The translations under genes and the position numbers were made by a program. From the NCBI RefSeq assembly GCF_965641715.1, contig NZ_OZ282453.1: a stretch of DNA of 64,000 bases; one strand, 5' to 3'. The stretch comes from Escherichia coli. Its GTDB lineage: Bacteria > Pseudomonadota > Gammaproteobacteria > Enterobacterales > Enterobacteriaceae. Positions 48,694-51,384 of the stretch are shown here, piece after piece; the stretch's first letter is position 1; every line of letters starts with the position of its first letter. A model generated the notes under the pieces. It did not search any database, was not told where the DNA came from, and saw only the letters and a list, made by a program, of their open reading frames with translations.

Positions 48694-48708
48694 TTTAACA
48701 TTAATGCC

Positions 48709-48736
48709 AAAAACCGGGGAAACCCGGTTTTTTTAT
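48709..48736 (+). terminator. Rho-independent terminator of the aroK-to-trpS transcription unit
   Basis: ccggggaaacccgg hairpin (48714-48727) followed by TTTTTTT (48728-48734), 16 bp after the trpS stop. Confidence 0.85.
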
Positions 48737-48802
48737 CCTCATTTGCAATAATCCGAAAAAATGTGAAGCGCCTCGCCGTTTCCACATCTCACAGTTGCCA
48801 CT

Positions 48803-48845
48803 TATCTTCATTTTAATGAAGATATAAACATTCATTTTATTGAAA
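48803..48845. promoter_or_regulatory. Tandem palindromic operator-like motifs immediately upstream of yhfZ
   Basis: Perfect 10-bp inverted repeat TATCTTCATT-tt-AATGAAGATA (48803-48824), then a second near-copy of the core TTCATTTTA(A/T)TGAA. The whole array ends 8 bp before the yhfZ ATG. Confidence 0.45.
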
Positions 48846-48852
48846 ATATATT

Positions 48853-49758
48853 ATGCGTCGAACGTTTATCAAAAAAGAAGGCGTCGTTATCACGACGCTG
48901 GCCCGTTATTTGTTGGGTGAAAAATGCGGTAATAGGTTGAAAACCATAGATGAGCTGGCAACTGAATGCCGTTCATCCGTTGGCCTGACGCAGGCCGCGT
49001 TGAAAACGCTGGAATCAAGCGGAGCGATACGGATTGAACGCCGTGGGCGCAATGGCAGTTATCTGGTCGAGATGGATAACAAAGCATTGCTGAGTCATGT
49101 GGATATCAACAACGTGGTATGTGCGATGCCTTTGCCCTATACCCGCTTGTACGAAGGTTTAGCGAGCGGATTGAAAGCCCAGTTTGATGGCATTCCTTTT
49201 TACTATGCGCATATGCGCGGCGCGGATATTCGCGTGGAGTGTTTACTTAACGGCGTGTATGACATGGCGGTGGTTTCCCGACTGGCGGCGGAAAGTTATC
49301 TCACGCAAAAAGGGTTATGCCTCGCGCTGGAGTTGGGGCCGCACACCTACGTTGGCGAGCACCAGTTGATTTGCCGTAAAGGCGAGTCCGCAAACGTGAA
49401 GCGTGTGGGGCTGGATAACCGTTCGGCGGATCAGAAAATCATGACCGATGTTTTTTTTGGCGGTAGTGATGTGGAACGAGTCGATCTCTCTTATCACGAG
49501 AGTTTACAACGCATTGTTAAAGGCGATGTTGATGCGGTTATCTGGAACGTGGTGGCGGAAAACGAACTGACCATGCTGGGATTAGAGGCGACGCCGCTCA
49601 CAGACGATCCGCGATTTTTACAGGCCACCGAAGCCGTGGTCCTGACGCGAGTCGATGATTACCCAATGCAACAACTGCTGCGTGCCGTTGTAGATAAACA
49701 CGCCCTGCTCGCCCATCAACAACGGGTGGTGAGTGGGGAACAGGAACCGAGTTATTAA
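48853..49758 (+). CDS. yhfZ: Putative transcriptional regulator YhfZ (301 aa; N-terminal winged-HTH-like region, C-terminal ligand-binding domain)
   Basis: ORF begins MRRTFIKKEGVVITTLARYLLGEKCGNRLKTIDELATECRSSVGLTQAALKTLESSGAIRIERRGRNGSYLV. Confidence 0.85.
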   Translation: MRRTFIKKEGVVITTLARYLLGEKCGNRLKTIDELATECRSSVGLTQAALKTLESSGAIRIERRGRNGSYLVEMDNKALLSHVDINNVVCAMPLPYTRLYEGLASGLKAQFDGIPFYYAHMRGADIRVECLLNGVYDMAVVSRLAAESYLTQKGLCLALELGPHTYVGEHQLICRKGESANVKRVGLDNRSADQKIMTDVFFGGSDVERVDLSYHESLQRIVKGDVDAVIWNVVAENELTMLGLEATPLTDDPRFLQATEAVVLTRVDDYPMQQLLRAVVDKHALLAHQQRVVSGEQEPSY

Positions 49759-49774: not shown

Positions 49775-50137
49775 ATGGAAACCAGACTCAACCTGCTTTG
49801 CGATGCAGGCGTTATTGATAAGGACATCTGCAAAGGCATGATGCAGGTCGTCAAGGTACTGGAAACAGAGTGCCATCTGCCGGTGCGCAGTGAGCAAGGA
49901 ACGATGGCGATGACACATATGGCGAGTGCACTGATGCGCAGTCGCCGTGGTGAAGAAATTGAGCCACTGGATAACGAGTTGCTGGCAGAGCTGGCGCAAT
50001 CCAGCCACTGGCAAGCCGTTGTGCAATTGCATCAGGTGTTGTTGAAGGAATTCGCATTGGAAGTTAACCCGTGTGAAGAAGGCTATTTGCTGGCCAACCT
50101 TTATGGATTATGGATGGCTGCTAACGAAGAGGTTTGA
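49775..50137 (+). CDS. yhfY: PRD-domain-like protein YhfY (120 aa)
   Basis: Start METRLNLLCDAGVIDKDICKGMMQVVKVLETECHLPVR preceded by a GAAAGG Shine-Dalgarno. PRD assignment is from recalled annotation. Confidence 0.8.
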   Translation: METRLNLLCDAGVIDKDICKGMMQVVKVLETECHLPVRSEQGTMAMTHMASALMRSRRGEEIEPLDNELLAELAQSSHWQAVVQLHQVLLKEFALEVNPCEEGYLLANLYGLWMAANEEV

Positions 50138-50220
50138 AGCTCCCGACAAATCCACGTCGCACAACCTAAATATTCAAAAAAATGAATATTTAATTCAAGG
50201 AACAGAAACGAGGCAACAAG

Positions 50221-51384
50221 ATGTTTGTAGAAGCATTGAAACGCCAGAACCCGGCGCTGATTTCCGCCGCACTAAGCCTGTGGCAGCAGGGCAAGATCGC
50301 CCCGGACAGCTGGGTGATCGACGTGGATCAGATACTGGAAAACGGTAAGCGGCTGATTGAGACGGCGCGGCTTTACGGCATTGAACTGTATCTGATGACC
50401 AAACAATTCGGTCGTAACCCATGGCTGGCGGAAAAACTGCTGGCGTTGGGCTACAGCGGCATTGTGGCGGTGGATTACAAAGAGGCGCGAGTCATGCGCC
50501 GCGCTGGTTTGCCGGTGGCGCATCAGGGGCATCTGGTACAAATCCCTTGTCATCAGGTTGCTGACGCCGTTGAACAGGGCACCGACGTCATCACCGTGTT
50601 TACTCTCGACAAAGCGCGGGAAGTTTCTGCGGCGGCGGTGAAGGCCGGGCGAATCCAGTCTGTGCTGCTCAAAGTTTATAACGACGATGATTTTCTTTAT
50701 CCGGGGCAGGAGAGCGGTTTTGTACAGCATTCGCTGCACGAGGTGGTTGCTGAAATTAAGAAACTGCCGGGGCTGCATTTAGCCGGACTAACCCATTTCC
50801 CTTGCCTGCTTTGGGATGAGGCTGCCGGGAAAGTTTTGCCGACACCGAATCTTCACACGCTGATACAGGCTCGGGATCAACTGGCGAAATCTGGTATTGC
50901 GATTGAGCAACTGAACGCACCTTCTGCGACCAGCTGCACTTCGTTGCCATTGCTGGCGCAATACGGTGTGACTCATGCCGAACCCGGTCATGCGCTGACG
51001 GGCACTATTCCGGCAAACCAGCAGGGCGATCAGCCTGAACGTATCGCGATGCTCTGGTTAAGTGAAATCTCCCATCATTTCCGTGGCGACAGCTACTGCT
51101 ACGGCGGCGGTTACTACCGTCGTGGTCATGCGCAACATGCGCTGGTGTTTACGCCAGAAAATCAAAAGATTACTGAAACCAATCTCAAAACTGTGGATGA
51201 CAGCAGTATCGACTACACCCTGTCGCTGGCAGGCGAGTTTCCGGTAAGCAGTGCAGTGGTGCTCTGTTTCCGCACGCAGATTTTTGTCACCCGTAGCGAT
51301 GTGGTGCTGGTGTCCGGTATTCACCGTGGCGAACCGAAAATCGTTGGTCGTTATGACAGTCTCGGCAACCCTCTGGAGGCGTAA
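50221..51384 (+). CDS. yhfX: YhfX, putative PLP-dependent enzyme of the alanine-racemase-like fold (387 aa)
   Basis: MFVEALKRQNPALISAALSLWQQGKIAPDSWVIDVDQILENGKRLIETARLYGIELYLMTKQFGRN; fold assignment is recalled, not derived from the sequence. Confidence 0.85.
   Translation: MFVEALKRQNPALISAALSLWQQGKIAPDSWVIDVDQILENGKRLIETARLYGIELYLMTKQFGRNPWLAEKLLALGYSGIVAVDYKEARVMRRAGLPVAHQGHLVQIPCHQVADAVEQGTDVITVFTLDKAREVSAAAVKAGRIQSVLLKVYNDDDFLYPGQESGFVQHSLHEVVAEIKKLPGLHLAGLTHFPCLLWDEAAGKVLPTPNLHTLIQARDQLAKSGIAIEQLNAPSATSCTSLPLLAQYGVTHAEPGHALTGTIPANQQGDQPERIAMLWLSEISHHFRGDSYCYGGGYYRRGHAQHALVFTPENQKITETNLKTVDDSSIDYTLSLAGEFPVSSAVVLCFRTQIFVTRSDVVLVSGIHRGEPKIVGRYDSLGNPLEA

Follow-up and report, generated by a model that had tools for sequence, protein, structure and literature searches.

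A conserved TTCA-N6-TGAA inverted repeat at three positions in the Escherichia coli yhf operon: putative operators of the GntR-type regulator YhfZ

In a 64-kb stretch of Escherichia coli DNA (the window, meaning the whole stretch analysed), the yhf operon carries three copies of an inverted repeat, TTCA-N6-TGAA, two of them (O1 and O2) in tandem directly upstream of yhfZ and a third (O3) between yhfY and yhfX, and it is probable, judging from sequence comparison, that these are operators of YhfZ at which repression of the operon is relieved by a ligand. The first-pass annotation of this DNA had taken the region upstream of yhfZ for the operator of a dimeric winged-helix regulator, placed across the promoter and a candidate site of YhfZ autoregulation, a prediction favored by each of the computational tests run since: the inverted repeat itself, its occurrence at 78 of 80 yhfZ loci, its persistence beside homologues with 31–47% identity, and a change of half-site that goes together with a change in the recognition helix. 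The tandem pair on which that annotation was built is real, but the copy before yhfX had been overlooked, and because there are three putative operators rather than two, control would cover the operon and not yhfZ alone. As an element, each site is of an ordinary kind, the operator of a local regulator, and is apparently new, in that the literature searched (curated regulon databases lay outside its scope) yielded neither a binding experiment nor any account of an operator, a regulon or an inducer for YhfZ. The features discussed here are collected in Table 1.

Table 1. Features of the yhfZ control region and neighboring genes in window coordinates; the last row gives positions in the loci named.
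Feature	Position	Strand	Details
trpS terminator hairpin	48709..48732	+	AAAAACCGGG/CCCGGTTTTT + T run; upstream limit of the yhfZ control region
Candidate CRP site	48762..48777	none	TGTGA-agcgcc-TCGCC; 8/10 match to TGTGA-N6-TCACA
Core promoter (inferred)	48795..48823	+	-35-like TTGCCA 48795-48800, 17-nt spacer, weak -10-like GAAGAT 48818-48823
Operator O1 (distal), putative	48803..48824	none	TATC-TTCA-ttttaa-TGAA-GATA; core 48807-48820
Operator O2 (proximal), putative	48827..48848	none	AACA-TTCA-ttttat-TGAA-AATA; core 48831-48844
yhfZ	48853..49758	+	301 aa; winged helix-turn-helix + solute-binding-protein-like domain; annotated yhfZ in RefSeq
yhfY	49775..50137	+	PRD-domain protein, second operon gene; RefSeq annotation transferred from K-12
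Operator O3, putative	50166..50193	none	CTAAATATTCA-aaaaaa-TGAATATTTAA; core 50173-50186
yhfX	50221..51384	+	PLP-dependent enzyme; Pfam Ala_racemase_N, YhfX-like_C; first gene downstream of O3
TACA-N6-TGTA at RGT[VI]Q loci	L090 1401; L094 498, 1470; L096 2469, 3485; L098 ~41		

The geometry of the pair before yhfZ is largely as it was first described. At O1, two 10-nt arms that are 100% complementary enclose a 2-nt spacer (TATCTTCATT-tt-AATGAAGATA, 48803-48824), and the second core, TTCATTTTATTGAA at 48831-48844, stands 10 nt past the end of the first (48820) and stops 8 nt short of the yhfZ ATG (48853). The second copy had been described as a repeat of the core, which is there but falls short of the full extent of the duplication: the direct repeat runs over 20 nt, 18 of them identical (48807-48826 against 48831-48850), with a start-to-start spacing of 24. 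Being 24 bp apart, O1 and O2 do not share a face of the helix, an unusual arrangement for cooperative dimers; within each site, the centers of the half-sites of TTCA-N6-TGAA are 10 bp apart, or about one helical turn. O3 was found by searching the window with the pattern TTCA-N6-TGAA. It reads AAATATTCA-AAAAAA-TGAATATTT, with the whole of 50166-50193 forming a near-perfect 28-nt palindrome, and it lies in the 83-nt gap between yhfY and yhfX, 35 nt upstream of the yhfX ATG; the sequence of O3 in K-12 is identical. The center of O3, in the window and at the homologous sites, is almost always AAAAAA, unlike those of O1 and O2, and an A-tract of this type may be relevant to bending or affinity.

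What is conserved in these sites becomes clear when six E. coli alleles are aligned across the yhfZ upstream region. The K-12-type O1 is TATCTTCA-AATTCC-TGAAGATA where that of the window is TATCTTCA-TTTTAA-TGAAGATA, such that both 8-nt arms are invariant among the six alleles and four of the six central bases differ, and in O2 the allelic changes are confined to the center and the outer flanks, with TTCA and TGAA never altered. Since the center varies and the arms do not, the 10-2-10 palindrome, although exact in this allele, is specific to it: the arms of the conserved unit are of about 8 nt and its center of 6, and the unit itself is TTCA-N6-TGAA with A/T-rich flanks (T-w-w-A-T-n-TTCA) rather than an arrangement of 10+2+10. 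The pooled half-site profile of 103 unique sites is T(-10) in 83%, W, W, A(-7) in 92%, T(-6) in 91%, n (A or C), and then TTCA; positions -10, -7 and -6 played no part in the selection of sites, yet they are conserved. The same 103 sites contain 28 different centers, AAAAAA being the commonest. The half-sites are thus two-fold symmetric, with specific bases conserved and the center free, as would be expected of an operator.

The motif is also sharply confined. TTCA-W6-TGAA occurs three times in the 64-kb window, where 0.02 occurrences are expected, and all three are in the yhf operon. A 28-nt matrix trained solely on sites from outside Escherichia picks O1, O2 and O3 and nothing else within the window, scoring O3 highest at 39.4 bits, followed by O1 (37.3) and O2 (37.0); the next-best position in the window reaches 7.0 bits, and the maximum in 20 shuffles was 10.4.

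To place the sites in a wider context, one genome per species was scanned, giving 80 yhfZ loci with 45–99% protein identity from Escherichia, Citrobacter, Klebsiella, Pluralibacter, Trabulsiella, Buttiauxella, Cedecea, Chimaeribacter, Lelliottia, Superficieibacter, Atlantibacter, Photorhabdus, Xenorhabdus, Serratia, Providencia, Vibrio and Photobacterium. When up to one core mismatch is allowed, 78 of these loci have a site no more than 120 nt from the yhfZ start. Two sites are present in 33 loci, and in every one of the 33 the O1-O2 spacing is 24 bp, with the O1 core starting at -46 from the ATG and the O2 core starting at -22 in all two-site genera. Among the genera with a single site, Xenorhabdus, Serratia and Providencia have the distal one, its core starting at -44 or -45, Photorhabdus and Atlantibacter the proximal one, and Vibrio one; the Vibrio and Photobacterium loci, with 45–47% identity, retain TTATCTTCA-N6-TGAAGAT. 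The distribution of exact cores over the 686 kb of the 80 loci has the form of a phylogenetic footprint: 107 of the 174 cores fall in the 100 nt that precede yhfZ, and another 56 at +1200 to +1399, in the yhfY-yhfX gap, so that 163 lie in two hot spots, and the 11 found elsewhere are about what chance would give for an 8-base pattern. The site before yhfX is kept in Escherichia, Citrobacter, Klebsiella, Pluralibacter, Trabulsiella, Serratia, Xenorhabdus and Providencia.

Of the 80 loci, two have no site so close to the yhfZ start, and one of these is that of Pluralibacter gergoviae (L044). Here yhfY comes before yhfZ, and the motif is found at -476 relative to yhfZ, which is upstream of yhfY, and again at +962, after yhfZ; the site has moved along with the start of the operon. 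Within E. coli, the 159-nt trpS-yhfZ spacer of the window is matched at 90–100% identity in 5084 of 5426 complete genomes, and the gene downstream of the matched spacer is annotated yhfZ. In the other 342 genomes (about 6%) nothing matches the region upstream of yhfZ; E. coli O157:H7 TR01, for example, retains only the first 38 nt after trpS, and in that strain the yhf operon appears to be missing or to have been replaced.

The candidate reader of the motif is encoded next to it. YhfZ, whose ATG at 48853 has no in-frame start upstream of it, matches the Pfam families HTH_41 (7e-19) and YhfZ_C PF14503 (3e-84) as well as the NCBIfam equivalog YhfZ_full, named “GntR family transcriptional regulator YhfZ”, and in a scan of the seven operon proteins other than that of yhfS it is the sole predicted DNA-binding protein. 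PF14503 has been placed among the solute-binding-protein profiles (PMC9602780). The structure in PDB, 2OZZ, spans only residues 74-301. In an AlphaFold model built on a 133-sequence alignment (pLDDT 94.7; an earlier model from 13 close sequences, with a pLDDT of 59, was dropped), a winged helix occupies residues 8-74, composed of helices 8-21, 32-38 and 43-55 and strands 59-63 and 69-74, in which 43-55 is the predicted recognition helix, and it is joined to a two-lobed alpha/beta domain. Foldseek ranks 2OZZ first for this model, followed by full-length LysR-type regulators and solute-binding proteins.

It is the recognition helix that suggests a tie between the protein and the motif. A profile search returned 730 clusters of the YhfZ family, which splits at the start of this helix into SVG[LIT]xQ, as in E. 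coli, and the commoner RGT[VI]Q; V43, L45 and T46 of the E. coli protein are R, T and V in most members. All six distant SVG[LIT]xQ representatives (31–47% identity) have TTCA-N6-TGAA some 20–33 nt before the start, one of them with an extra copy after yhfZ, and those that keep it at 31–37% identity sit in unrelated AT-rich genomes. The RGT[VI]Q sample comprised five loci with an upstream region. None of the five has TTCA-N6-TGAA near the start, and four, which are Firmicute-like, have TACA-N6-TGTA about 30 nt before the ATG instead (Table 1); the fifth, L097, has neither. In two of these four loci TACA-N6-TGTA comes directly after a clear -10 (TATAAT or TGnTAnnAT), with a similar element further upstream in the other two, and in two RGT[VI]Q loci a second copy stands before the PRD gene. 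The TTCA and TACA types are alike in geometry and position and differ in one half-site base pair, which changes along with the helix. The correlation comes from few loci (six, together with 78 close ones, against four of five), but since the half-site switch accompanies the recognition helix, it points to YhfZ itself as the reader and is, of the indirect lines of evidence for this, the strongest.

Where the sites lie relative to a promoter was considered from conserved upstream elements. Across nearly all Enterobacterales yhfZ loci, a TGTGA stands upstream of the ATG at a constant distance of about 91 nt, and a TTGnnn hexamer, which is TTGCCA in the window, follows 33 nt past it. The match of the window sequence to the CRP consensus is not unusual by itself, with 25 sites in the window reaching 8/10, but a CRP-like site at a fixed distance suggests catabolite control of the operon. 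Taking TTGCCA as the -35 element and GAAGAT as a weak -10, the predicted start would fall near 48830 and the CRP-like site would be centered near -61. A sigma-70 consensus scan did not report this pair; the hexamer pairs it did report for yhfZ, which would start at or after the ATG or lie on the opposite strand, were set aside, since the conserved TTGnnn and TGTGA point elsewhere. The same scan gave no promoter-like pair near O3 and yhfX, and no start for yhfZ, yhfX or yhfY was found in the supplements of a Cappable-seq paper and a global RNA-seq paper. On the promoter model, the spacer and the -10 would be covered by O1, and +1 to about +18 by O2. Because O1 and O2 would lie over this promoter, which is conserved but predicted and has a weak -10, the arrangement would be that of a repressor; this agrees with the RGT[VI]Q subfamily, where the site likewise follows the -10.

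These observations can be assembled into a model in which YhfZ, combining a winged helix of the GntR type with a ligand domain that resembles solute-binding proteins, would act as the local regulator of O1, O2 and O3. The operator would be the inverted repeat T-w-w-A-T-n-TTCA / N6 / TGAA-n-A-T-w-w-A, to which a YhfZ dimer would bind with one recognition helix in each of two major grooves, one helical turn apart, leaving the six central bases uncontacted. O1 would overlie the spacer and the weak -10 of a promoter assisted by CRP, and O2 the start of transcription and the first part of the leader; YhfZ, once bound, would keep RNA polymerase out and so repress both yhfZ and the operon yhfZYXW-php-yhfUTS until a small molecule, bound at the C-terminal domain, released it. 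O3 would add a further level of control over the enzyme and transporter genes, and may serve an internal promoter, as a roadblock or as a looping partner.

Several other explanations can be envisioned for the same sites. One keeps them as YhfZ operators but makes YhfZ a ligand-dependent activator or dual regulator of the LysR kind, with a tetramer using one site of the tandem pair for recognition and the other for activation. Apart from YhfZ itself, the structures that best match it over its full length are indeed OxyR, CbnR and BenM, the fixed 24-bp pair recalls two-site binding by a tetramer, and a promoter with a weak -10, together with the lack of a consensus promoter at O3, would suit dependence on an activator. 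We nevertheless regard this as unlikely: many genera keep a single site, which may be the distal one (Xenorhabdus), the proximal one (Photorhabdus) or just one (Vibrio); the motif is not of the T-N11-A type; O2 covers the predicted start in the promoter model; and in two of the four TACA-type loci of the distant subfamily the site comes immediately after a strong -10, which is the position of a repressor.

A second alternative is that the motif is bound by another transcription factor, either global or conserved with the operon; against this, the half-site changes together with the recognition helix of YhfZ. The link between YhfZ and this DNA is a predicted one, and AT-rich palindromes of TGAA/TTCA-like half-sites are known as the ARG box of ArgR and the CodY box, parts of which the motif resembles; the winged helix of YhfZ even has a very weak match (E = 0.5) to the DNA-binding domain of CodY, its only other sequence match in PDB. 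However, the ARG box, TGAAT-N4-ATTCA, has its half-sites the other way round, the halves of the CodY box are separated by 1 nt where those of the motif here are separated by six, and the CRP consensus is mismatched, and on such grounds of half-site order and spacing an identity of O1, O2 and O3 with ARG, CRP, CodY or LysR boxes was rejected. The motif is moreover confined to the yhf operon in the window, falls to the chance rate elsewhere in the 686 kb, and tracks yhfZ into Vibrio and into the unrelated AT-rich genomes at 31–37% identity, all of which make a different protein highly unlikely as its reader. Barely credible is the idea that the palindromes work as RNA hairpins in the yhfZ and yhfX leaders, as an attenuator or an element of stability or translation, and not as DNA sites. 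O1 and O3 do fold into modest AU-rich hairpins (-8.3 and -7.4 kcal/mol; z = -5.5 and -8.1) and yhfZ lacks a Shine-Dalgarno sequence, but O2, despite having the same half-sites, does not fold (-1.5 kcal/mol, z = -0.58), no T run follows the stems and no terminator was called at the sites, and O1 would lie upstream of the start in the promoter model. Conservation bears on specific bases (TTCA, A-7, T-6) and not on complementarity: at arm position n, the bases of the two halves could pair in only 25% of sites, which shows that selection has not acted to preserve pairing. With O2 unfolded, no covariation in pairing and no credible Rfam family match at the operator sites, the hairpin or attenuator reading was rejected. 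One attenuator survey did put yhfZ in an attenuator cluster, which it ascribed to BIME repeats (PMC2965389). In K-12-type strains, the gap between the trpS stop codon and its terminator has about 130 extra nt of REP/BIME-like sequence (L001 1854-1995, against 48694-48708 in the window), giving a trpS-yhfZ spacer of 289 nt rather than the 159 nt seen here; this insert, which lies upstream and not at the operator motif, probably explains the listing.

With O1, O2 and O3 read as YhfZ operators, the system can be compared with those already described. GntR-family local repressors such as FadR and those of the HutC/NagR type share with YhfZ an N-terminal winged helix of three helices and two strands and a short inverted-repeat operator beside their own gene; NCBI names YhfZ a member of the family, and some of its homologues have weak matches to PF00392. 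The “RGTVQxAL” helix of most YhfZ-family members resembles the GntR signature. GntR operators have a core of the GT-Nx-AC type, where the motif here is instead TTCA-N6-TGAA. In the classical subfamilies (FadR, HutC, MocR, YtrA and others), the C-terminal domain also differs from that of YhfZ, which has the solute-binding fold of PF14503; having the DNA-binding domain of the family but none of its effector domains, YhfZ constitutes a separate subfamily. The LysR-type regulators OxyR, CbnR and BenM likewise combine a winged helix with a type-2 periplasmic-binding-protein-like domain and use two adjacent sites at the promoter, as are present in the yhfZ region. This stands in contrast to the absence from YhfZ of any HTH_1 or LysR_substrate Pfam match, the poor superposition (rmsd 12–16 Å, TM about 0.45), the dissimilarity of the T-N11-A box to the YhfZ motif, and the number of yhfZ genera with a single site. 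Membership in the LysR family was thus rejected for want of HTH_1, LysR_substrate and T-N11-A, and the resemblance is one of distant fold only.

In overall layout, the yhf region recalls lac (O1/O2/O3), gal (OE/OI) and deo, with a candidate CRP site upstream, operators that would lie over the core promoter and, 1.36 kb downstream, one more putative operator within the operon. It differs from these systems in that O3 is in an intergenic gap before a gene and not inside a coding region, and in that nothing in the yhf region demonstrates looping, tetramers or an inducer. A broader proposal, which we put forward tentatively and hold to be doubtful, is that YhfZ-type regulators make up a separate and widespread class of one-component regulators with a fixed 4-6-4 geometry, in which the TTCA/TACA switch is made through residues 43, 45 and 46, and that the three operators of E. 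coli, two of them 24 bp apart and one 1.36 kb downstream, cooperate by looping or as a roadblock that separates the expression of yhfZ and yhfY from that of the genes for enzymes and transporters in what would be a cryptic catabolic operon.

An autoregulatory palindrome beside the gene for an uncharacterized regulator will not surprise a specialist; what makes the model well defined and testable is how deeply the motif is conserved, together with the copy before yhfX and the joint switch of helix and half-site. YhfZ and the genes yhfZYXW-php-yhfUTS are among the E. coli genes still without a known function, and a precise, deeply conserved motif with three mapped sites turns a “putative regulator” into a directly testable model. 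TTCA-N6-TGAA can serve as a search pattern for the prediction of regulons in other bacteria, and the pairing of SVGLxQ with TTCA and of RGTVQ with TACA is a small and clean candidate rule of specificity in an unstudied branch of the GntR family.

The + strand of the window carries, in this order, dam, rpe, gph, trpS, yhfZ, yhfY, yhfX, yhfW, php, yhfU and yhfT. The last position of trpS is 48693, and the terminator hairpin that follows it is invariant among the E. coli alleles. yhfY has a weak NCBIfam match (TIGR03582), and a PRD gene follows yhfZ in the distant loci as well; the mechanical open reading frame for yhfY begins at a GTG at 49733, encodes 134 aa and overlaps the end of yhfZ, whereas the RefSeq protein of 120 aa begins at 49775. 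The yhfZ leader is A/U-rich and mostly taken up by O2, and in every genus examined (L006-L085, and 48845-48855 in the window) yhfZ is preceded by no recognizable Shine-Dalgarno sequence.
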